NCBI GenBank assembly: GCA_965223945.1
Contig: CBDCXW010000001.1
Span: 320,207 to 384,206 of the forward strand
Length of the DNA stretch: 64,000 bases
Origin: Dehalococcoidia bacterium
Lineage (GTDB): Bacteria; Chloroflexota; Dehalococcoidia; Lucifugimonadales; CATQGZ01
Direction: 5' to 3'
The notes below the pieces were generated by a model, which did not search any database, was not told the origin of the DNA, and was given only the letters and a program-made list of their open reading frames with translations. Both the position numbers and the translations under genes were made by a program. This document shows positions 39,057 through 55,553 of this stretch, in pieces; the stretch's first letter is position 1; each line of letters opens with the position of its first letter.

Positions 39057-40469
39057 ATGAACATAGACCCCCACAACCCTGAGAGTGTGCAGGGCCTCGA
39101 AGGCGACATTCAACAGCCTCAGGCGATCTCATTGGACGAGGCGGCCGAAATCGCCAGTGAGGTCCAGGAGCTGGTCAGGGCGGGTAGAGAGCGCTCCGCC
39201 TGGGAGTTGATCCGGCACCTGCACCCGGCCGATATGGGGAGCATCGTAGCGAGTCTTCCCCGCGCAAGCATGGAAGCCATGGTCCGCGTCATGTCGCCGG
39301 AAACGGTCGCATGGATGCTGAGGCAGATGAATCCCGTTGTGGCCGGGCGAGTGGGGACTCGCCTCGGTGTGCAGATGCTCAAGTTCGTACTTGGCCAGGT
39401 CCATCCCAATCAGGCGCTGGCTACGTTGCGACGGATTCCAATTCTGCGGCCTCAGGAGGTAGCGGAGTCTCTGGAACAACCCCAAGTCGTAGAAGAGCTT
39501 CTTGCACATGAGCCGGACACGGCTGGTTCCCTCATGGTCACCCAGCTGCCGATGGTCGATGTCGACGGTCCAGCCGAAGGGGCTCGGGAGAATCTAAGGG
39601 CACTGAAGGAGATACGACACAAGCTCACACACATATACGTAGCCGGAGACGGCGGCACCCTTTTCGGCCAGATCAGCATGGTAGACCTCGCTCTGGCGGA
39701 CGATGCGACGCCCATTCGGACGATAGCCTCGTCAATCGTGGCCACCGTGACAGCCGAAACGCCCGCCGATGAGTGCGCCCGGCTTCAGCGCCACTACAAT
39801 CTGATGCAGATACCGGTGGTCGACGATGATCGGATGATAGGAGTGATCCTGGCGGAATCGCTGCTGGGCGCCACAGTAGAGCAGGACACGCGCCAGATGC
39901 AGCAGGTGGGCAACGTGGCCGGCGAGACGGTGGACGGTCCTCTGGCCAGCTCGGTCCGTACACGCCTCCCCTGGCTAACGGTCAACCTGGCCACGACGTT
40001 CCTTGCCGCGGCAACTATTGCGCTGTTTGAATCGACCCTGACTCAAGTGGTCGTGCTTGCCGCATTTCTACCTGTGGTGGCTGGCCAGGGAGGGATTGGC
40101 GGAACCCAGACCTTGACCCTCATAGTACGAGCGATCGCGCTTGGAGAGCTCGTCGGTGTCGGTGCTCAGCGGCTCCTTATTCGGGAAGCCTTCCTCGGCT
40201 TGGTTCACGGGATTTGGCTGGGCGTCCTAGTCGCGATCATCGCCGTCCTATGGAAGCAGAACGTTGGCCTGGGGCTCGTGTTGGGAATCGCTATGCTCGG
40301 CAACATGCTAATTGCCGGTTCGGTCGGAGCGGCGGTGCCGCTGTTCCTGCGGCGAATGGGACTGGACCCGGCGGTCGCATCCGCTGTGGTCGTCACCACC
40401 GTTACGGACGTGTTCGGCTTTCTGCTGTTCCTGGGTATCGCGAGCGCCTTCATCAGTCTAATCACATAG
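39057..40469 (+). CDS. mgtE: Magnesium transporter MgtE
   Basis: 470 aa with an N-domain, a CBS pair and a C-terminal 5-TM domain (AGQGGIGGTQTLTLIVRAIALGE, VVTTVTDVFGFLLFLGIA). Confidence 0.9.
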   Translation: MNIDPHNPESVQGLEGDIQQPQAISLDEAAEIASEVQELVRAGRERSAWELIRHLHPADMGSIVASLPRASMEAMVRVMSPETVAWMLRQMNPVVAGRVGTRLGVQMLKFVLGQVHPNQALATLRRIPILRPQEVAESLEQPQVVEELLAHEPDTAGSLMVTQLPMVDVDGPAEGARENLRALKEIRHKLTHIYVAGDGGTLFGQISMVDLALADDATPIRTIASSIVATVTAETPADECARLQRHYNLMQIPVVDDDRMIGVILAESLLGATVEQDTRQMQQVGNVAGETVDGPLASSVRTRLPWLTVNLATTFLAAATIALFESTLTQVVVLAAFLPVVAGQGGIGGTQTLTLIVRAIALGELVGVGAQRLLIREAFLGLVHGIWLGVLVAIIAVLWKQNVGLGLVLGIAMLGNMLIAGSVGAAVPLFLRRMGLDPAVASAVVVTTVTDVFGFLLFLGIASAFISLIT

Positions 40470-40665
40470 GCCGGCCAAGCATCTCTCCTTCCTTCTTCCC
40501 AGCCCTCCACTGACTGATCGGGAGATTGCATGCAGCCTTTCGTCTCATGATGTGGGAAGGCGCTGAGTCCGGAGCACTGTGGTTGAGGTCATGCGCGTCA
40601 TTGATTTGCCAGCACGCATGTGCTATCATATTCCCGTGGCCAAGACTGAATCCCACGGTTACACC

Positions 40666-40717
40666 ATTCCGGCGGCGCCCGGAATCAACCGCTCTCTGCG
40701 CTCTCCGCGGTTAGACC
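40666..40717. repeat. Two adjacent interspersed repeats: ATTCCGGC-GGCGC-CCGGAAT hairpin (copy 4) and CTCTCTGCGCTCTCCGCGGTTAGACC
   Basis: Read directly. The second is the reverse complement of the element at 23058-23094. Confidence 0.7.
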
Positions 40718-40877
40718 ATCTCCCCTGTCACATTCGTGTAACATTCACGTCACATCTGGGCACTTTCGGGCAACTTCCTGCCACATCTTGTAACCGGGCC
40801 CAAAGCTGAAAGTGACACGATGTGACAAAAGGTTACTGATTTACGGCGGAGCCCATCATCCGCCCTTGGTCCGGTGA

Positions 40878-42944
<2,067 letters not shown>

Positions 42945-45454: not shown

Positions 45455-46555
45455 TCACAGGCCCATCGAGACGCCTATCAGCCTGCCCACGCCGAACGTC
45501 ACGGTTGCCGCCAAGCCGCCGGCCAGGAACATTCTCAGGGCCCCCCAGGCTACATTACGGCCCGCCGCCGCCGCAAGAACGCCGCCGACGACGACCAGCG
45601 CCAGCCCGCCAACCACGGCGCTGGCAACCACGGCGCCGCTTTCGGCAGCAAACAGAAACGGAATGATCGGCAGGGCAGCTCCGGCCACGAAGGCGAAGAA
45701 CGAGCTAATGGCGGCGCCCCACGGAGCCCCGAGCTGAGATGGGTCAAGCCCCAGCTCCTCTCTGGCCATCGTCTCCAGAGCGACGTCTGGTCTACTCATG
45801 ATCCGCTTCGCTACGGACCGCGCCTCGGCTTCGGGGATGCCCTTCGCCCGGTATATCAGCACGAGCTCCTCCTCTTCCTCTTCCGGCCACTCCTCCAGCT
45901 CCGCCTTCTCCATCCGGATCCGGTGCTCGTATGTGTCGCGCTGCGACCGCATCGAGATGTACTCGCCGGCGGCCATGGAGAACGCCCCCGCCAGCAGTCC
46001 AGCAGTGCCGGCAAGCAGCACGAACTCGTGGTTGCCGGTACCTCCCGCCACGCCCATAACGAGGCTGAAGTTCGATACGAGGCCGTCGTTCATCCCCAGA
46101 ACGGCCGCCCTGAGACGTCCCCCGTCCCCTATGCCAGCCTCCGTGGCCGGCCGAATGCCCGCCAGAGGGTCGTCGCCGCTGGCAAGCGCGCTCAGCACTT
46201 GAGAGTGCCTGCGCTCTTCTTCCACGAGGTCAACGGCCTCCGGGTCCGCAGCATAGGCGGCCATCTCCTTGGCCTCGAACCGCACCAGCCACGGCACCAC
46301 ACGCTTGGTGCCGAACAGCCTGGCGGCTAGGGCGTACGACCTTAGCTTCATCGCAGACGCGCGCGGCTCTACCTCGGCGGCGTTCATGCCGAGCTTCTCA
46401 GCCCACCTGCCCGCGTGCCTCATCTCGGACGCACGCAGCTCTTCGAAGATCTCACGACGGCCCTCATCCTCCTCGGCGTCGGCCAGAACCCTGTAGACGG
46501 CCGCCGCTTCCAGCTCCGCCTCGAGGTACTCTTTGTAGCGGGCCTCGTCCCTCAT
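45455..46555 (-). CDS. VIT1/CCC1-family iron/manganese transporter with an N-terminal ferritin-like domain
   Basis: The N-terminus EAELEAAAVYRVLA...ELRASEMRHAGRW is rubrerythrin-like. It is followed by LRAAVLGMNDGLVSNFSLVMGVAG and C-terminal TM helices. Confidence 0.8.
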   Translation of the reverse strand: MRDEARYKEYLEAELEAAAVYRVLADAEEDEGRREIFEELRASEMRHAGRWAEKLGMNAAEVEPRASAMKLRSYALAARLFGTKRVVPWLVRFEAKEMAAYAADPEAVDLVEEERRHSQVLSALASGDDPLAGIRPATEAGIGDGGRLRAAVLGMNDGLVSNFSLVMGVAGGTGNHEFVLLAGTAGLLAGAFSMAAGEYISMRSQRDTYEHRIRMEKAELEEWPEEEEEELVLIYRAKGIPEAEARSVAKRIMSRPDVALETMAREELGLDPSQLGAPWGAAISSFFAFVAGAALPIIPFLFAAESGAVVASAVVGGLALVVVGGVLAAAAGRNVAWGALRMFLAGGLAATVTFGVGRLIGVSMGL

Positions 46556-47403
46556 TCGATGCGGAGGCCCTCTCGGACACCCTTGATGCGGTCCATGTTC
46601 TCCTTGTCAGGCCCCTTCTTGTCCATGCCGGGGACCTCCAGGATGAAGGGCACTTCCCTGAATGCCGGGTGGCCCAGGATCACCTCAAAGCCCGCGATGC
46701 CGATGTGCCCCTCCCCGATGTTCTCGTGGCGGTCCACCCCAGAGCCGAACTCCACCTTGGCATCGTTGGCGTGAACCACGACCAGCTTATCCAGGCCTAT
46801 CGCCCTGTCGAACTCGTCCATGACGCCGTCGATGGCGTCCGGGTCGGCCAGATTGTACCCGGCTGCGAACGTATGCTCGGTATCCAGGCACACTTTGACG
46901 CGCGGATCGTCGACCGCCTCGATCATCCGGGCGATCTCAGTAAACGACGATCCGATGTGCGAGCCCATACCGGCGCTGTTCTCAATGATCAGCCACACGT
47001 CCTCCGGGCTCTCAGCCAGCGCCTCTCGAAGGGCCACCGAGGCCTGGTCGAGCACTCCGTCGAATCCAACGCCCCCATGGCTGCCGCCATGGAATATCAC
47101 CCCGGCCGCTCCGATACGACCCGCTGCGTTCATGTGAGAGGTCAGCGAGCCGACCGACTTGACCACCAGGTCCGGTTTGCCGCCCACGTTGATCAGGTAG
47201 CTGGCGTGAATGAAAACGGGCGATATGCCGGTCTCGTCCTGCCTGGCCCGGAAGGCCTCCACCTGGGTCTCTGGAGCATCCCGGAACTTCCAGGCCCTCG
47301 GCGACGTGGCGAAAATCTGGACCGCCTCCGCCCCGATCTCCAAGGCCCGGTCGAACGCCTTGTCTATCCCTCCCGATGTCGAAACGTGTGCTCCCAGCTT
47401 CAT
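46552..47403 (-). CDS. nfo: Endonuclease IV (deoxyribonuclease IV)
   Basis: 283 aa. Contains MKLGAHVSTSGGIDKAFDRALEIGAEAVQIF, IFHGGSH, ENSAG, VCLDTEH and DRHENIGEGHIG. Confidence 0.9.
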   Translation of the reverse strand: MKLGAHVSTSGGIDKAFDRALEIGAEAVQIFATSPRAWKFRDAPETQVEAFRARQDETGISPVFIHASYLINVGGKPDLVVKSVGSLTSHMNAAGRIGAAGVIFHGGSHGGVGFDGVLDQASVALREALAESPEDVWLIIENSAGMGSHIGSSFTEIARMIEAVDDPRVKVCLDTEHTFAAGYNLADPDAIDGVMDEFDRAIGLDKLVVVHANDAKVEFGSGVDRHENIGEGHIGIAGFEVILGHPAFREVPFILEVPGMDKKGPDKENMDRIKGVREGLRIE

Positions 47404-47431
47404 CTACCGCTCCTGTCGTCTATTTCGACCT

Positions 47432-48601
47432 CTACTCTACCAATCTTCCCGCCTGGGTTGTAGACACAGTCTGTGCGAACCCGGTCGGGCACTCCCGATT
47501 CTTGCAGAAAAATACGCGGAACTCGGTCAGAGGGAGGTCGCGGCTGGCCGCTCTGGCAACACGATACACAGTGGTTCCGACCAACAGCACCCCACCACCG
47601 ACTGCAACCGGGATTCCAAAAGGTCCCATCGATAGTCCCGCACCAACGGCAACTTTCGCTCCAACAGCGGCGGCTGCGCCGAAGCCGGCGGCAGTTGCCG
47701 TGCTCTTCGTGGTATCTATTGCAGCCTTCCTCCCGGTCTTCCGTCCGCGCCTGCAGTGGAGAACGTTTTCCAGCGCGGCAACAGGCGCTTCGATAGCCGC
47801 AGCTATAACCCCACCTTTGGCCGCACTCTTGAGTGTCGCATTGGCCACTACTCGGGTCGCCGCAATGCGGCCCGATGACTTTGCGGCAGCAACTTCAGCG
47901 GCGGTCATGTTCCGGCTGCCCCGCGAGAGGTTCCTGCTGGCATCCTCGAATACCATGTTGCTGGGCCATTTGGATCGACCGGGCGCGGCGACCACCGACT
48001 TGATGTGGCTGCCTTGCCTCCCCTTCAGGTACTCCTTGACGGCGCCTTCTCCCCTGTTGCGGACTATCGTAGGAATCTTCTCGTATACCCGCCGTGCCAT
48101 TGCCTGGGTGCGGACTCCGCGGGAGCCTCCAAGTCCGGTAGATCGGAAATGTCTTTTCATAGCAACGCTAAGGCCGTCCCATCCTCCGGCTGGTGACCTG
48201 GCTGCCGCCGTTCCTACGGTAGCGGCTGCGACGGCAGGTCCACCGGTTTGAGGGCCCATCCGATCGGAAGCCGGTTCCGGTCCATCCTCGACCGATGCGT
48301 AGATTCTCTGCGCGACGGTCCGCGTGCCCTCGGGTATGGTCCGGTTGCAGTGACCGCAAGAGACTTCGTCCTCGGTTGTCTCCTTGTGGGTGTACCCGTG
48401 ACAAAGCCGTCGGACGTAACAGGATTGCTCATATCCCTTCTTTCCGCACTTCGGGCAGTTGATGCAATAATTCTCGTACTTCCCTCGCCGGAATCCATCC
48501 GGCATCTCCACTGGCATCTGCGACAGGCACCTCGAGCCGGGCGGGATCCTGTGGAGACACTGTGAACAAAGCATCTTCTCTTCAGCAATTACATGCCACA
48601 T
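47432..48601 (-). CDS. Uncharacterised protein: N-terminal Cys-rich zinc ribbons, a central HNH-like (H-N-N) motif and a C-terminal Gly/Ala-rich hydrophobic segment
   Basis: The start MWHV at 48601 has GGAAGGGAG 8 nt upstream. Cys pairs are CSQC..., CINCPKC and SCGHC. The central motif is GSHIKSVVAAPGRSKWPSNMVFEDASRNLSRG. The C-terminal part reads AAGFGAAAAVGAKVAVGAGLSMGPFGIPVAVGGGVLLVG. AT-richer than the flanks. Confidence 0.6.
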   Translation of the reverse strand: MWHVIAEEKMLCSQCLHRIPPGSRCLSQMPVEMPDGFRRGKYENYCINCPKCGKKGYEQSCYVRRLCHGYTHKETTEDEVSCGHCNRTIPEGTRTVAQRIYASVEDGPEPASDRMGPQTGGPAVAAATVGTAAARSPAGGWDGLSVAMKRHFRSTGLGGSRGVRTQAMARRVYEKIPTIVRNRGEGAVKEYLKGRQGSHIKSVVAAPGRSKWPSNMVFEDASRNLSRGSRNMTAAEVAAAKSSGRIAATRVVANATLKSAAKGGVIAAAIEAPVAALENVLHCRRGRKTGRKAAIDTTKSTATAAGFGAAAAVGAKVAVGAGLSMGPFGIPVAVGGGVLLVGTTVYRVARAASRDLPLTEFRVFFCKNRECPTGFAQTVSTTQAGRLVE

Positions 48602-48691
48602 ATAGAAAGCTCCCTTCCGTGCCTTCTTGTTCATTCCTGTTGCGAGCCTCAGTTACCGCAACGCACTCGGCGACGGCCGAATTGTGCGGCT

Positions 48692-49093
48692 TCAGCCCTT
48701 TGTCTCACCGGGGGCGGTGTCTGGCTCCTCGTCAAGCAGACGGCTCATCTGCTCACGGGCCTTTCGAATGACCTCGGACTGTTCGGCAATCTTGTCGTAC
48801 AGGTCAGCCCTTGCCTTGGCTCCCTCAGCGATCAGGAAGGCAGCGGTTTCAGACCTGCTGCTGGTCAGACCGCAGTTCACAAGGTCATCAAGCTTTCGTA
48901 GGCTCTCCTTGTTAAGCCTGACCATAACCTGAAAGTCCCGCTCCGTCCGGACTGCCCTGAGTGTCTCCCTGATGGATCCGCTCGCGCCCAACACGGCGTC
49001 ACCTAGGCCTTCGGCGATTCTCCTGCCTCTCGTCCTGCCCTTTGACTGAGCGTCCTCAAACTCGTGTTCATCGTCATTACCGCCGCTGTTCAT
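48692..49093 (-). CDS. Ribbon-helix-helix (CopG/Arc-like) DNA-binding protein
   Basis: 133 aa. DFQVMVRLNKESLRKLDDLVNCGLTSSRSETAAFLIAEG fits a beta-strand/helix/helix RHH pattern. The tails are acidic and disordered. Confidence 0.65.
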   Translation of the reverse strand: MNSGGNDDEHEFEDAQSKGRTRGRRIAEGLGDAVLGASGSIRETLRAVRTERDFQVMVRLNKESLRKLDDLVNCGLTSSRSETAAFLIAEGAKARADLYDKIAEQSEVIRKAREQMSRLLDEEPDTAPGETKG

Positions 49094-49133
49094 ATGTTTC
49101 GGCCTTTCACCATAACACCATTCTACGTAAGTG

Positions 49134-49163
49134 TATAATGGCTATACTCATTATCTTTGTCAA
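49134..49163. promoter_or_regulatory. Divergent overlapping promoters with an embedded palindrome
   Basis: Minus strand: TTGACA (49163-49158), 17 nt, CATTAT (49140-49135), upstream of the RHH gene. Plus strand: perfect TATAAT at 49134-49139, upstream of 49229. Inverted repeat ATAATG (49135-49140) / CATTAT (49149-49154). Confidence 0.5.
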
Positions 49164-49228
49164 CCCCAATTTTCCGAAATCCCTAACCCGTCCTTGTCCA
49201 CCCTGAGACGCGCGCCTATACTCGGGAC

Positions 49229-50254
49229 ATGAGAGCCTTGGTATTGGAGTCGCCGGGAGACCCGCCCTCGTTGGCTGTCCACGAGCGGGACGCGCCAGCC
49301 GTCGGGCCGGGCGATGTCCTGGTCAGGGTAGCGGCGGCCGGGCTCTGCGGCCACGATGTCGCGGTGATGCGGGGGACGCTGCGAAGAGGCGTGAGACCCG
49401 GCGTCATCCTCGGTCATGAGATATCGGGCACAGTCGTCGAGACTGGCGGCGAAGTCAGGTCGGTCCGCGTGGGCGACGCAGTCGTTTCGACCCTGACCAC
49501 GTTCTGCGGCGACTGCGAGCGCTGCCTGTCCGGCGACGACTACCGCTGTCTCTACGCCCGCGGCATCGGCCACGGGGTCGGCGGCGGCTTCGCAGAGCTT
49601 GTGGCCCTGCCCGAAGGCAGCGTCATTCCGGTATCTAACGGCATTGACCTGGAGTGGGCGTGCCTCCTGTCCTGCCCAATGGGTGTAGCAGTCCAGGCCG
49701 CCCGGGACGTAGCAGGGGTGAGGGCCGGAGAGACCGTGGTCGTTACCGGCGCGGGCGGCGGGCTCGGAGTGCACGCCGCGCTTGCGGCGGCCGCCCTGGG
49801 GGCGCGGGTACTGGCCCTCACCACATCCGTAGGCAAGATCGCCCCACTCGAAGGCCTCGGCCTGGAAGTGGTCCACTCCGACGAGCTGCCGTTCTCCGAG
49901 CTCGTCCTCGCTCTGACCGAAGACCGCGGAGCGGACGTGGTGCTGGACGCCGTGGGGTCGGCGGTATTCGAGCAGTCTCTGCGCAGCCTGTCTCAGGGGG
50001 GAAGGCTGGTGCTGATCGGCGAGGTCGCAGGCTCCAAGGTAGAGGTGAGCCCGGCGGAGATCATGTTCCGCAACGCCACTATCGCGGGGGCTACCGGCGC
50101 ATCGAGGAGGCATGCCGCCGACGCGCTGGCTATGCTGAGGTCCGGAGCGATGGACTGCGTAGTATCGCGCCGCTTCCCCTTTGAGGAGGCGCGCGAGGCC
50201 TACAGGCTCATGCGGAACGGCGAGTCCTTCGGCAGACTGCTGTTGATTCCCTAG
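49229..50254 (+). CDS. MDR-family zinc-binding dehydrogenase / quinone oxidoreductase-like
   Basis: Contains AAGLCGHDVAVMRG, GHEISGTV, CGDCERC and VTGAGGGLG. Confidence 0.85.
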   Translation: MRALVLESPGDPPSLAVHERDAPAVGPGDVLVRVAAAGLCGHDVAVMRGTLRRGVRPGVILGHEISGTVVETGGEVRSVRVGDAVVSTLTTFCGDCERCLSGDDYRCLYARGIGHGVGGGFAELVALPEGSVIPVSNGIDLEWACLLSCPMGVAVQAARDVAGVRAGETVVVTGAGGGLGVHAALAAAALGARVLALTTSVGKIAPLEGLGLEVVHSDELPFSELVLALTEDRGADVVLDAVGSAVFEQSLRSLSQGGRLVLIGEVAGSKVEVSPAEIMFRNATIAGATGASRRHAADALAMLRSGAMDCVVSRRFPFEEAREAYRLMRNGESFGRLLLIP

Positions 50255-51402
50255 GTTGGGCGGCGGAACAGTCTGCGGAAGTCGCCCTGATCCCAGGACA
50301 CGAGCATCTGGCTGGCTATTCCGACCGAGCTGTACGTTCCCACGACCACGCCTATGAGGAGGACCAGAAGGAACTCCCTGATGGTCGAGCCCCCAAGCAG
50401 CAGCAGGGCCAGCAGGGTGAATAGAAGCGTCAGGCTCGTGTTCAGAGAACGGCTGATGGTCTCGGATATGCTGACGTTAACGTTGTCGGTCAGCGTCCGG
50501 TTGGGATAGTTCAGAACGTTCTCTCTCAGCCGGTCGAACACCACGATCGTATCGTTGACGCTGTAGCCGATCACCGTCAACAGGGCGATCATGAACATGA
50601 GGTTGACTTCGACATCCAACAGCTCTCCAAGAATGGCGAATATCCCTACTACGATGGCCGTGTCGTGCAGGAGGGCGACGATTGCGGCGGCGCTGTACCT
50701 GAACGGGCTCGGAACGTTCCTGAAGGCCCACCAGACGTACAAGAATATGCCCACCGCGGCAAGCAGCACCGCAAAGAAGGCGTTACGCACCGTCTCCTCG
50801 GCTACCGAGGGCGATACGCCGTCGAAGGCGATCACCTCGACGCCGCCGATCGTAACCAGCACGTTCGCCACAGGCGCCCCGTCGCCGACTGCCAGCACCA
50901 CCTCGCTTTCGTTGGGGCCCGGCTCCAGCGACATGACCAGTTCGCCGGACGGTGTGACATCGTCCGTATCCACGATAAGGCGGCCCGTTCTCTCACCCGA
51001 CTCCGCCCTTATCGAGACTCCGCCCGGTTCCGACGGTATGGTAAGGGCCACGCGGCCGTCGGCGTCGGTGCGTCCCACGGAGGCGAAAGACGGCTCCAGA
51101 GCCTCGTTCACGCCGGCGACTACGACATTCTTTTCCTCTGTGCTCAGCTCTTTGGTACGAATGAAGTACGTGTTGTCGCCGAGCCCCTGGACGATGGCGT
51201 CGGGGTGTCCAAGATCGGCCATCACCGTCCGAACGTCCTCCTGGTCGACACTCTCAGAGAACAGCAGCGTTATGCTCGATCCGCCCGTGAAGTCGAGGCC
51301 CGCCTTCAGTCCGTCTATCGGGGGGGCCAGGAAGACCATCCCCGGCAGGATTACCAGCAGGGATATGAGAAAGAACCACTTCCTCTTTCCAGCGAAGTCC
51401 AT
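50251..51402 (-). CDS. secF: Protein translocase subunit SecF
   Basis: The likely start MDFAGKRKWFFLISLLVILPG at 51402 follows the secD stop directly. Contains GLDFTGGS and C-terminal TM helices. The track ORF's 88-aa extension overlaps secD. Confidence 0.9.
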   Translation of the reverse strand: MDFAGKRKWFFLISLLVILPGMVFLAPPIDGLKAGLDFTGGSSITLLFSESVDQEDVRTVMADLGHPDAIVQGLGDNTYFIRTKELSTEEKNVVVAGVNEALEPSFASVGRTDADGRVALTIPSEPGGVSIRAESGERTGRLIVDTDDVTPSGELVMSLEPGPNESEVVLAVGDGAPVANVLVTIGGVEVIAFDGVSPSVAEETVRNAFFAVLLAAVGIFLYVWWAFRNVPSPFRYSAAAIVALLHDTAIVVGIFAILGELLDVEVNLMFMIALLTVIGYSVNDTIVVFDRLRENVLNYPNRTLTDNVNVSISETISRSLNTSLTLLFTLLALLLLGGSTIREFLLVLLIGVVVGTYSSVGIASQMLVSWDQGDFRRLFRRPT

Positions 51403-54792: not shown

Positions 54793-55380
54793 CTACTTGA
54801 CCTTTACCGTCGCCGGAGTCTCTCTTGAGTCGAGATGACCATTACCCGGCGTGACGACCGCCGGCTCCTGAACTGGCCTCGTCCCGTTCTCAGGCCCGGC
54901 GGCCTCGAATTCGCTTATAGGTATGAGACGTTCGTGCTCCTTGAGGTGGTCCACGTAGAGGATCCCGTCCAGATGATCGACCTCATGCTCGACGGCAAGC
55001 GACAGCAGGTCGTCCGCCCTGAGCTTCACCACTCTGGCGGTCTCATCCAAAGCCTTGAACTTGATCCATACCGAGCGAGTAATCAAGCCCCTATACCCGG
55101 GTATGCTCAGGCACCCGTCGTATTGGTCTCGTTCACCCTCCCGGTGGACGATTTCGGGGTTGATGTATATACGGGCCTCCTCTTCCTCGGGAAGTTGGAT
55201 TACGATCACCCTCTTCAGCACTCCGACCTGGTTTGCCGCCAGCCCGACACCATCCGCGCCCCTCATGGTATCGACCATGTCTTCGGCGAGCTTGAGCACG
55301 GAAGCGTCTATCTTCCTGACCTTTCTGGCTCGCTGCCTGAGGGCGGGATCGGGCAGCTTAAGTATCGGCAGGACGGCCAT
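54793..55380 (-). CDS. def: Peptide deformylase
   Basis: The start MAVLPILKLPDP at 55380 has GGAGAC 8 nt upstream. The three signature motifs are GVGLAANQVG, DGCLSIPG and HEVDHLDG. There is a C-terminal extension of about 40 aa. Confidence 0.9.
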   Translation of the reverse strand: MAVLPILKLPDPALRQRARKVRKIDASVLKLAEDMVDTMRGADGVGLAANQVGVLKRVIVIQLPEEEEARIYINPEIVHREGERDQYDGCLSIPGYRGLITRSVWIKFKALDETARVVKLRADDLLSLAVEHEVDHLDGILYVDHLKEHERLIPISEFEAAGPENGTRPVQEPAVVTPGNGHLDSRETPATVKVK

Positions 55381-55553
55381 CTCGAACTGTCTCCAAACAC
55401 ACACATGCGCCATGTTATGCTATGGCGCACAGCGCGATTATATATGGCGTGGACTCGTCTGTAAACCGATGGACGCCCATCCTGGGATGGAGGCCTCGGC
55501 GTTGAAGACCCTCAGCCCCTCACCGACAAGGGCGGCGTGAAGGAGCCCACGAC

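Follow-up and report, generated by a model that had tools for sequence, protein, structure and literature searches.

A divergent HNH-like protein with a predicted membrane hairpin inside a putative split zinc module, encoded behind a ribbon-helix-helix-like gene in a Dehalococcoidia bacterium

Outward-facing membrane-anchored nucleases of the ββα-Me type are known; pneumococcal EndA and Bacillus NucA, for example, are held by a single N-terminal anchor, carry a DRGH-type motif and act in competence. The His-Me finger is defined by a His that ends the first β-strand, an Asn between the two strands and an Asn or His at the start of the helix for the metal (PMC5714182). Moreover, HNH endonucleases of phages and prophages combine the HNH core with extra zinc-ribbon domains (PMC3592412). 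Here we analysed a stretch of 64,000 nucleotides from a Dehalococcoidia bacterium (GenBank assembly GCA_965223945.1, contig CBDCXW010000001.1, positions 320,207 to 384,206; the whole stretch is called the window). Its minus strand encodes a protein of 389 amino acids (47432..48601, stop codon counted in), called the large protein below, and upstream of it a ribbon-helix-helix (RHH)-like protein of 133 amino acids (48692..49093). We propose that the large protein is a membrane-anchored divergent HNH nuclease with a role in conflict or defence, which is placed here under an autoregulated RHH repressor, and we give this composite explanation a probability of about 0.5. The fold, the conservation of the motif, the architecture and the gene contexts come from structure prediction and sequence comparison, and from these we infer the activity, topology, zinc binding, repression and role.

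The central part of the large protein carries the motif GSHIKSVVAAPGRSKWPSNMVFEDASRNLSRG, in which H199, N215 and N224 stand in the spacing H-x15-N-x8-N, followed by R227-G228. In Cas9 as well, R-G follows the Asn of the helix (NRGK). An earlier note, made by a model from the letters of this stretch alone, had likened this segment to the core of HNH nucleases, and the comparison holds. The family consensus behind the helical region reads [S]H-I-x-S-x3-P-x7-N-x3-E-x4-N-x2-R-G-x3-M, and S198, H199, P207, N215, E219, N224, R227 and G228 are invariant in an alignment of 37 sequences. H199 and N224 are invariant in all alignments, down to about 25% identity, and the other six are invariant or at least 90% conserved across the wider family. 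Of the 271 collected family proteins, 235 carry the full S-H…N…E…N..R motif, and most of the exceptions are fragments. An AlphaFold model of the domain alone (residues 138-262, built from 71 sequences) reached a predicted local distance difference test (pLDDT) score of 93.9 and a predicted template modelling (pTM) score of 0.85. It consists of four short helices, β-strands at 195-199 and 216-220, a helix at 221-227 and a long helix; the His closes the first strand, N215 immediately precedes the second and N224 lies inside the helix at 221-227. Because the His, both Asn and the β-β-α unit sit as defined, the predicted model agrees with a His-Me finger (PMC5714182). The earlier note would have dropped the HNH idea if the segment did not model as a β-β-α-metal fold and its H/N residues were not conserved; we found the fold in the model and the residues conserved. 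The helical subdomain with the His-Me finger (HNH-like) domain covers residues 138-233 (47903..48190, minus strand), and the β-β-α core residues 195-228 (47918..48019, minus strand).

Structure and profile searches point in the same direction. With the domain model as query, Foldseek against predicted viral structures placed annotated HNH endonucleases of phages on top (best E 2e-3, probability 0.99), many of the matches spanning 36-40 residues at a root-mean-square deviation of about 1 Å. Against the PDB the best E was 0.49 and no match was individually significant; the list is almost wholly of His-Me finger proteins, namely teneurin C-terminal Tox-GHH, EXOG, Cas9 HNH domains, VcaM4I, NucA and PtuB. 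With the full-length model (pLDDT 68), Foldseek produced nothing but noise from helical bundles. In Pfam, Tox-GHH matched the family consensus across the S-H region (E 0.0076; 16.6 bits against a cut-off of 25), and it was matched individually by 2 of the 71 members. A homologue from Trichormus variabilis ATCC 29413 reads SHIKPHSKGGSNNPNNIKWENAKDNIARG, which follows the classical HIxPxSxGG…N…N pattern except that W-E and D-N replace the zinc-knuckle cysteines. Its top two Pfam matches were HNH and HNH_5, both sub-threshold at E 0.08 (HNH at 13.5 bits against a cut-off of 21.4), and in having SHIKPxSKGGxxxxxN this cyanobacterial member is like the classical HNH proteins. Within the HNH superfamily, the nearest families are therefore Tox-GHH (PF15636) and HNH (PF01844) or HNH_5 (PF14279) by sequence, and the phage HNH endonucleases, the Cas9 HNH domain and the teneurin Tox-GHH domain by structure. 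Since four independent lines agree, namely the conservation of the motif, the topology of the model, the neighbours in structure searches and the weak profile matches, it is very likely that the large protein belongs to the His-Me finger/HNH superfamily. Membership of any named HNH family is not supported by the scores. In particular, the features of Tox-GHH polymorphic toxins are not found here, because the signature is S-H-I, the N-terminus is a zinc ribbon and the downstream gene is nfo; unlike those toxins, the large protein has neither secretion or delivery domains nor an adjacent immunity gene.

The likeness to HNH nucleases lies in the β-β-α core, with the His ending β1, the Asn before β2 and the Asn in the helix, and the differences surround it. 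The core has no zinc-knuckle cysteines, with W-E and x-N standing in place of L-C and C-N/H; Ser rather than Asp or His comes before the catalytic His; β2 contains an invariant Glu; and a conserved four-helix subdomain precedes the core, whereas amphipathic helices and the membrane hairpin follow it. Some facts of this kind weigh against a nuclease. Ser198 stands before the catalytic His at the place where Asp, Glu or His is usual as a metal ligand (criterion of PMC5714182), and the residues at +4 and +8 from N224 are G228 and M232, neither being a polar ligand, so metal binding may be unusual. Moreover, no curated family threshold was reached, the window protein itself had no Pfam match, and the Foldseek matches in the PDB were non-significant. 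The invariant E219 might substitute for the auxiliary metal ligand. Judging from the model and from conservation, H199 is likely the general base, N224 a metal ligand and N215 structural, with auxiliary roles for E219 and R227, and on these residues we would predict a metal-dependent nuclease activity of the large protein.

Two relatives, P0061 (1291 aa) and P0071 (908 aa), are made of 9 and 6 tandem copies of the helical and HNH-like domain. Their degenerate catalytic residues bear on an explanation that we consider unlikely, in which the large protein is a non-catalytic membrane protein whose HNH-like fold binds nucleic acid, metal or protein in membrane or stress biology, such as a DNA tether or a factor of envelope stress. 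Most of the P0061 copies are without the His, so the fold can serve non-catalytic roles, which also speaks against our own proposal. The missing acidic ligand before the His would fit as well, and the N-termini of other subfamilies are amphipathic repeats with weak apolipoprotein matches (P0136, E 0.0068). Weak PspA/IM30 matches occur in 11 of the 71 members, in the C-terminal extension in all 5 whose positions were examined, and many of the genes are solitary with long upstream regions. On the other hand, the His, both Asn, the Glu and the Arg are almost invariant in very distant relatives, which is the pattern of an active site, and in the arrays the membrane-proximal copy retains the full motif; in P0061 this is the last copy, adjoining the usual membrane segment. 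A catalytic domain next to the membrane remains our preferred explanation.

The predicted architecture is an HNH-like core and a membrane hairpin within a split zinc module, with interchangeable N-termini across the family. All of its parts lie on the minus strand. The large protein begins with a Cys-rich zinc-ribbon module (residues 1-104, 48290..48601; C12, C15, H17, C25, C46, C49, C52, C61, C82 and C85), which was modelled at pLDDT 77-93 and mainly as β-strand, with only weak zinc-ribbon hints from Pfam. The Cys pairs noticed here before, C12-x2-C15, C46-x2-C49-x2-C52 and C82-x2-C85, are invariant or nearly so. A low-complexity Ala/Gly/Pro linker (residues 105-137, 48191..48289), aligned poorly and modelled below pLDDT 50, leads to the HNH-like domain. 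Behind this domain comes an amphipathic helical region (residues 234-302, 47696..47902; E271, E278, N279, H282, R285, R287, K288 and D296), which keeps the pattern E..V...EN..H..G.K throughout the family; the model has helices at 234-261, 266-284 and 290-312, at pLDDT 63-83 for residues 231-260 and below 50 for most of 260-302. A Gly/Ala-rich hydrophobic stretch (residues 303-346, 47564..47695), assigned by hydropathy and holding an LxxGPxGxP turn, follows. The C-terminal tail (residues 355-389, 47435..47539) has the motif DLPL..EF.VFFCK...C with C366 and C371, and was modelled at pLDDT 84-86, its strand spanning 359-364 and its helix 370-385. Over its full length, the AlphaFold model is confident at residues 1-104, 140-250 and 355-385 and poor in the linker and the hairpin.

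The Cys-rich start and the distant tail seem to belong together. In this subfamily 12 Cys/His are conserved, ten in the N-terminal part, each invariant or in at least 90% of the sequences, and C366 and C371 in the tail; this would be enough for three four-ligand sites, if these residues bind zinc as we suppose. The zinc ribbon and the C-tail occur together in 49 proteins and are both missing from 156, while 18 and 12 proteins have one only; proteins with only the ribbon or only the tail are mostly fragments. In P0185 (676 aa) the N-module is fused straight to the C-tail (…LNEYRIYFCERRDCKTRFA…) without the HNH/hairpin core, and this zinc unit is then followed by a different Gly-zipper membrane protein with a GHGFAAE motif. 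A 163-codon derivative at L004:6001-6490 keeps just residues 1-78 and 346-382. Other subfamilies (P0139, P0124) pair another Cys-rich N-terminus with another Cys tail. Because the tail is modelled confidently, the two parts co-occur and they are joined directly in P0185 and L004, we regard the N-terminal ribbons and the C-tail as one module, so that in this subfamily the HNH-plus-hairpin core would be inserted into a zinc-binding domain. The split module would most probably serve as a clasp, bind DNA or act as a sensor. Unlike the zinc-ribbon HNH nucleases of phages and prophages (PMC3592412), the large protein has its zinc module split around the core, a core without the [CxxC]2 site, and a membrane hairpin; neither a terminase or cos context nor phage relatives were found.

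The Gly/Ala stretch near the C-terminus, which had been suggested to insert in the membrane, is a conserved hydrophobic feature of the family by hydropathy. Averaged over 19 residues, the Kyte-Doolittle hydropathy of the window protein is 1.5-1.75 across residues 317-348. All 10 members tested have a hydrophobic stretch of 40-45 residues with a mean of 1.5-2.4, a segment of low confidence in the model of the window protein, and an alignment of diverse relatives places the stretch in all family members. Small residues (G-A-G-A-G-G) recur at every fourth position, and basic residues stand on both flanks, RRGRKTGRK before and YRVARAASR after. Probably the stretch forms a two-helix membrane hairpin. 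Because the zinc module is split across it, both ends of the hairpin should be cytoplasmic, and the basic flanks fit this orientation.

The opposite orientation, a membrane-anchored nuclease that faces outward and acts on external DNA in uptake, scavenging or biofilm in the manner of EndA and NucA, is very unlikely in our judgement. It would explain the signal-peptide-like start in 3 of 31 diverse relatives (P0127, P0158 and P0172), and NucA and EXOG-type folds are among the structural matches. These starts also count against a uniformly cytoplasmic arrangement, as the topology may vary within the family and some domains may lie outside the cell. However, the window protein has no signal peptide and opens with a Cys-rich zinc module of the kind usual in the cytoplasm, the hairpin has basic residues at either side, which predicts both ends inside, and no competence or secretion genes were found near the gene in the window or at L006, the locus of the closest relative. 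Unlike EndA and NucA, the large protein has a C-terminal hairpin as anchor, a predicted cytoplasmic orientation and a different genomic context. If the cytoplasmic orientation of the tethered nuclease is true, the hairpin would suggest a way of keeping nuclease activity at the membrane's inner side.

The family seems to be absent from current annotation. The large protein had no meaningful family match in Pfam, NCBIfam, PADLOC and PHROGs, in line with the earlier statement that no family could be recognised. A word-indexed search collected 57 full-length homologues, all unnamed, none with a Pfam domain and mostly from metagenome-assembled genomes (MAGs); matches at the genome level were four, all in Dehalococcoidia MAGs, one of which has two copies. 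When 1.84 billion cluster representatives were searched exhaustively with the profile, 632 proteins matched at E <= 1e-3, and 150 of them at E <= 1e-30. Many of the 632 match only the profile positions from about 120 to 360, behind unrelated N-termini. The family-wide core therefore consists of the HNH-like domain, the conserved amphipathic helices and the hydrophobic hairpin of 40-45 residues, and the N-termini are variable. Named relatives are all "hypothetical protein", including one from Candidatus Poribacteria. PDB profile searches were uninformative for the whole family (an S26e zinc-ribbon hint at E 0.18) and gave only spurious T4 lysozyme segments for the domain profile (E >= 0.16). 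Weak matches of relatives to PspA/IM30, DUF3482, COMMD8 and apolipoprotein were set aside as coiled-coil or hydrophobic noise outside the region common to the window protein. No relatives were found in phage genomes (tblastn), in the JGI metagenome and IMG/VR scans or in viral contigs, nor a description of the family in the literature on membrane-anchored or glycine-zipper HNH proteins. The fold is known, and the family, its motif variant and its architecture are absent from the libraries and papers searched.

If our assignment is true, the 632 cluster representatives are an unannotated branch of the HNH superfamily with no Pfam or NCBIfam name, and its nuclease and membrane hairpin inserted in a split zinc module would be an unusual architecture. 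The hosts are Dehalococcoidia, Candidatus Poribacteria, other uncultured bacteria and T. variabilis ATCC 29413, in which the gene is on a conjugative plasmid; this last strain is cultivable, which makes the family experimentally approachable. The T. variabilis member (WP_011316605.1, 336 aa; L019:5923-6933, NC_007410.1) is encoded on the conjugative megaplasmid A, near ParM and a pair of genes for a DNA-phosphorothioation-associated methyltransferase and DUF4007, and its motif is the closest to classical HNH in the family. For annotation, the pattern [SGTA]H-x12-20-N-x3-E-x4-N-x2-R followed by a hydrophobic hairpin could be used, and pairing with an RHH gene is to be taken as lineage-specific.

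Genomic contexts tell more about the role. At L006 the order SecD-SecF-ADH-[RHH]-large gene-nfo-VIT1-S58 (ADH, alcohol dehydrogenase; nfo, endonuclease IV) is that of the window, and the flanks are 92-95% identical in nucleotides. In the window, the RHH gene, the large gene, nfo, VIT1 and S58 stand head-to-tail on the minus strand with small gaps. Together with the same order in L006, and with genes for Fpg and an RmuC-domain protein adjoining the family gene at two distant loci, this could be read as a housekeeping accessory of DNA repair that is co-expressed with nfo. We consider such a role highly improbable. The linkage to nfo is limited to this one close relative and is found in none of the 11 other distinct contexts, the large protein is 81% identical between the window and L006 against 99% for the nfo product, and the GC content of the large gene is below that of nfo. 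The earlier note had named core synteny with nfo in related genomes as a ground against its proposal; the synteny is real, though trivially so, in being shared with L006 and with nothing more distant.

The divergence from L006 was also compared gene by gene. The large gene has an amino-acid identity of 81% with a synonymous divergence (dS) of 0.27 and a nonsynonymous divergence (dN) of 0.098, whereas nfo, VIT1, S58 and ADH have 95-99%, 0.03-0.09 and 0.005-0.022, respectively. This divergence is mosaic: identity is 78-81% in the linker and 67-77% in the hairpin, the fastest segment, and 95-97% in the HNH core and the C-tail. A wholesale allelic replacement as the source of the high dS was rejected for this mosaic pattern.

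In distant genomes the neighbours differ in every one examined. They often include DDE, IS1595 and TnpB transposases, resolvases, McrBC fragments and a type I restriction subunit, and further a methyltransferase-Mrr fusion, HigBA, SocA, tRNA genes and a conjugative plasmid backbone near the phosphorothioation-associated methyltransferase. At L014:4739-4964 a family member is directly 3' of genes for tRNA-Phe and tRNA-Gly, a typical integration hotspot. From the neighbours listed, we read the large gene as accessory, horizontally mobile and leaning to conflict or defence neighbourhoods. Its GC content below that of the flanks and its dS against L006, higher than in the neighbouring genes, also count in favour of an accessory gene. 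Because of this accessory behaviour and the frequent transposase, restriction or toxin-antitoxin neighbours, a role in conflict or defence is suggested, and such a defence or addiction gene would be missing from the current defence catalogues. Several facts weigh against this role: several contexts, among them the window, L001, L002 and L014, are plain housekeeping ones, PADLOC has no model for the large protein and nothing similar was seen among phage genomes or viral contigs, and the excess divergence from L006 sits mostly in low-complexity segments, which may reflect slippage rather than selection.

The gene upstream encodes a protein with the sequence pattern of a ribbon-helix-helix regulator, as had been recognised before. 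The putative core (residues 55-92, 48818..48931, minus strand; QVMVRLNKESLRKLDDLVNCGLTSSRSETAAFLIAEGA) is ordered as a β-strand, a helix, a G-x-T/S-x-S-R-S-E cap and a second helix (VMVRL-NKESLRKLDDLV-NCGLTSSRSE-TAAFLIAEG). There are 49 homologues, some of them solitary, and V56, R59, L65, D69, L71, S79, R80, S81, A85, L87, I88 and G91 are invariant in an alignment of 29 homologues. Family matches are all sub-threshold: two distant homologues match RHH_1 (E 1.3e-3 and 1.3e-2), and a PHROG repressor (2.5e-3) and AbmR (4e-4) are the others. PDB profile searches with the RHH protein and with the RHH profile gave coiled-coil noise only. It counts against the repressor part of our proposal that both the RHH fold and its operator are assigned from patterns.

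The RHH gene is preceded by the sigma-70-like promoter TTGACA-17-CATTAT (49135..49163, minus strand; 10 of 12 consensus positions), which the earlier note had already placed there. A consensus scan of the region found three promoter-like sites against 0.5 expected, and TTGACA-17-TATCNT promoters are at the same place in L001, L002 and L015. The -10 element of the window promoter is one arm of the inverted repeat ATAATG-N8-CATTAT (49135..49154), which the earlier note took to fit autoregulation by the RHH protein. The repeat itself is secure, as it occurs once in the window and in none of 100 shuffles, but comparison does not support an operator role, for it is absent from the promoters of the RHH homologues, the closest relative included; in this genome the repeat may still have such a role. 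Instead, a TTAC(AC)GTAA-type element (49121..49134, minus strand; window version ACACTTACGTAGAA) is directly downstream of the -10. In L001, L002, L015 and L016 the sequence TTACACGTAA is right after the -10, about 27-30 nt before the RHH start codon; L006 has TAACGTAA and the window TTACGTAG at 49130-49123. Because this ACGTA-centred element is common to the homologue promoters and the repeat is not, comparison favours TTAC(AC)GTA as the better candidate for the operator. A second exact TTACACGTAA is at L016:3171-3180 (minus strand), between two PaREP1-family genes and near the solitary RHH gene; its position about 200 bp upstream of one of the PaREP1-family genes hints at targets of the RHH protein beyond its own promoter.

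The small gene in front of a larger one had also been likened to type II toxin-antitoxin (TA) and some abortive-infection modules. In a TA or addiction module, the RHH protein would be the labile antitoxin and operon repressor and the large protein a toxin of DNA, membrane or both. The layout is indeed like that of TA operons with RHH antitoxins (CopG, ParD, FitA), with the small RHH-like gene upstream, a single sigma-70-like promoter and a palindromic promoter sequence; the effector gene begins 90 nt on, and no terminator lies between. Moreover, a second Dehalococcoidia genome has promoter, RHH gene and large gene duplicated in one block. This genome, MAG OY282458.1, has two promoter-RHH-large gene cassettes of about 95.5% identity at distant loci (L001:5516-7173 and L002:5223-7156); the duplicated block ends about 40-50 bp past the stop codon and measures about 1.9 kb in L002, whereas the L001 copy, shortened by a deletion, has about 1.66 kb. 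The L002 copy carries the complete pair of RHH and large genes, and seven pairs of RHH and large-protein clusters are on contigs of equal size. The Gly-rich segment GAVVGSVLGPGGAVVGGVLG of some RHH homologues could contact the effector hairpin, and solitary RHH genes could be orphan antitoxins. In P0274, P0277 and P0278 this Gly-zipper-like insert precedes the RHH domain and has a weak C19orf12 match (E 5e-5); the window RHH protein is without it.

The distribution of the pair, however, does not follow that of a TA system, and we consider this explanation rather unlikely. The RHH gene accompanies only those relatives of the large protein with at least 57% identity, so the co-conservation that the earlier note asked for exists within this clade and not elsewhere. 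No RHH gene is upstream at L003, L005, L007-L011, L017 and L018 (35-53% identity) or at the wider family loci L012-L014 and L019, and most of the family, including all members without the zinc ribbon, lacks it. Conversely, the RHH genes of L015 and L016 have the same promoter and are solitary, and nothing of the large gene was seen there. L001 has lost the RHH domain to a 229-bp deletion and retains an intact large open reading frame (ORF) of 376 amino acids; at L006 an element of about 860 bp interrupts the RHH gene, and the ORF of 392 amino acids is intact. These two cases are not decisive against an antitoxin role, since the L002 copy could act in trans and an 88-aa RHH fragment is left in L006. 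In a further clade the conserved partner is another gene, downstream of the family gene. Besides, a membrane-anchored effector of 389 amino acids is unusual in size and anchoring for a type II toxin. A classical TA pair is thus less likely, because the two genes are not co-conserved beyond one clade, each of them occurs alone, and the RHH gene is truncated by deletion or split at two loci where the large ORF is intact; on this point the TA or abortive-infection reading proposed earlier is not supported. What remains in our view is a putative RHH repressor that would serve the proposed membrane-anchored nuclease in this lineage only. In favour of such a separate regulator we count the 49 homologues, some of them solitary, the promoter architecture and TTACACGTAA element that they share, and the duplication of the cassette as one unit.

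The element that splits the RHH gene (L006:4851-5711, relative of window 48895-48994) has perfect 11-bp terminal inverted repeats, GTGTGAGAAGT … ACTTCTCACAC, and may be a non-autonomous insertion sequence or a miniature inverted-repeat transposable element. A 255-aa ORF inside it belongs to no family and is probably a spurious reading of this small terminal-inverted-repeat element. The downstream partner mentioned above belongs to the distant clade P0047-P0057, where a conserved gene of 227-259 amino acids begins 6-25 nt after the family gene (L005:9220-9903 and L017:6207-6986). Its two copies are 39% identical, have no Pfam match and have no counterpart in the window; it could be a clade-specific partner or an immunity protein.

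These observations can be assembled as follows. The working core of the large protein would be the four-helix subdomain and the β-β-α unit with S-H…N…E…N..RG, continued by the amphipathic helices and tethered by the Gly/Ala hairpin. The zinc ribbons and the Cys tail would fold together around this core on the cytoplasmic side, and the protein would cut nucleic acid on the inner side of the membrane. Its role may be in conflict or defence, such as the exclusion of incoming DNA or the suicide of infected cells. In this lineage only, the gene would have come to lie behind the gene of an RHH transcription factor that already existed and regulated itself, and the sigma-70-type promoter with a TTACGTA-type operator just after the -10 would keep it repressed. 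A more tentative and rather doubtful generalisation is that the family is a class, unrecognised so far, of single-protein, membrane-tethered HNH effectors, cytoplasm-facing nucleases on a glycine-zipper hairpin with interchangeable N-terminal sensors or clasps (here the split zinc-binding domain), which would cut DNA when released by a trigger, possibly perforate the membrane, and provide defence or abortive infection without a partner. The triggers that we would name in this context, also doubtfully, are DNA entry, envelope damage and loss of the RHH repressor.

Such effectors would be comparable with the two-transmembrane SLATT/DUF4231 or glycine-zipper effectors, which likewise have a hairpin of small residues on an enzymatic or sensor domain and variable, defence-like neighbourhoods. 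The T. variabilis homologue has a weak DUF4231 match (E 0.16). Unlike SLATT/DUF4231 proteins, however, the family has no significant sequence match to them and no nearby partner genes for nucleotide signalling, and pore formation by the hairpin is pure conjecture.

Finally, some features of the locus itself are recorded. Read from its first ATG, the large ORF has 400 codons for amino acids (47432..48634, minus strand). Because all the 37 aligned homologues begin with MWHVI or MWxVI, the true start should be the ATG at 48601, which opens MWHVI and gives 389 amino acids; the public protein P0001 is identical to this form. The two-gene layout, the protein size and the 90-nt gap given in the earlier note are thereby confirmed, the RHH-like ORF at 48692..49093 being identified by the ORF list, its 49 homologues and the weak family matches. 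In the spacer between the two genes (48602..48691, minus strand), which contains GGAAGGGAG upstream of the ATG at 48601, the coding strand shows no terminator-like site. The window was scanned for Rfam families and tRNA genes with negative results. GC content is 0.54-0.62 across 47200-49400, whereas most of the flanking sequence is at about 0.64-0.70, so the lower GC noticed over the module is real, yet not unique within the window, where it dips to 0.55-0.58 also at 40400-41000, 50200-50800 and 54800-55400. Within 46552-47434, the nfo gene begins 28 nt past the stop codon of the large gene on the minus strand, and downstream of it the VIT1 and S58 peptidase genes overlap or are closely spaced on the same strand. 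No terminator-like site was found on the minus strand in the scanned 47200-49400, and read-through from the RHH promoter into nfo is possible. The intergenic region in front of the RHH gene also has plus-strand promoter-like sites at 49194-49222 and 49112-49139. One of them is directly 5' of the divergent gene for a zinc-dependent alcohol dehydrogenase (49229..50254), so that RHH binding could act both ways.

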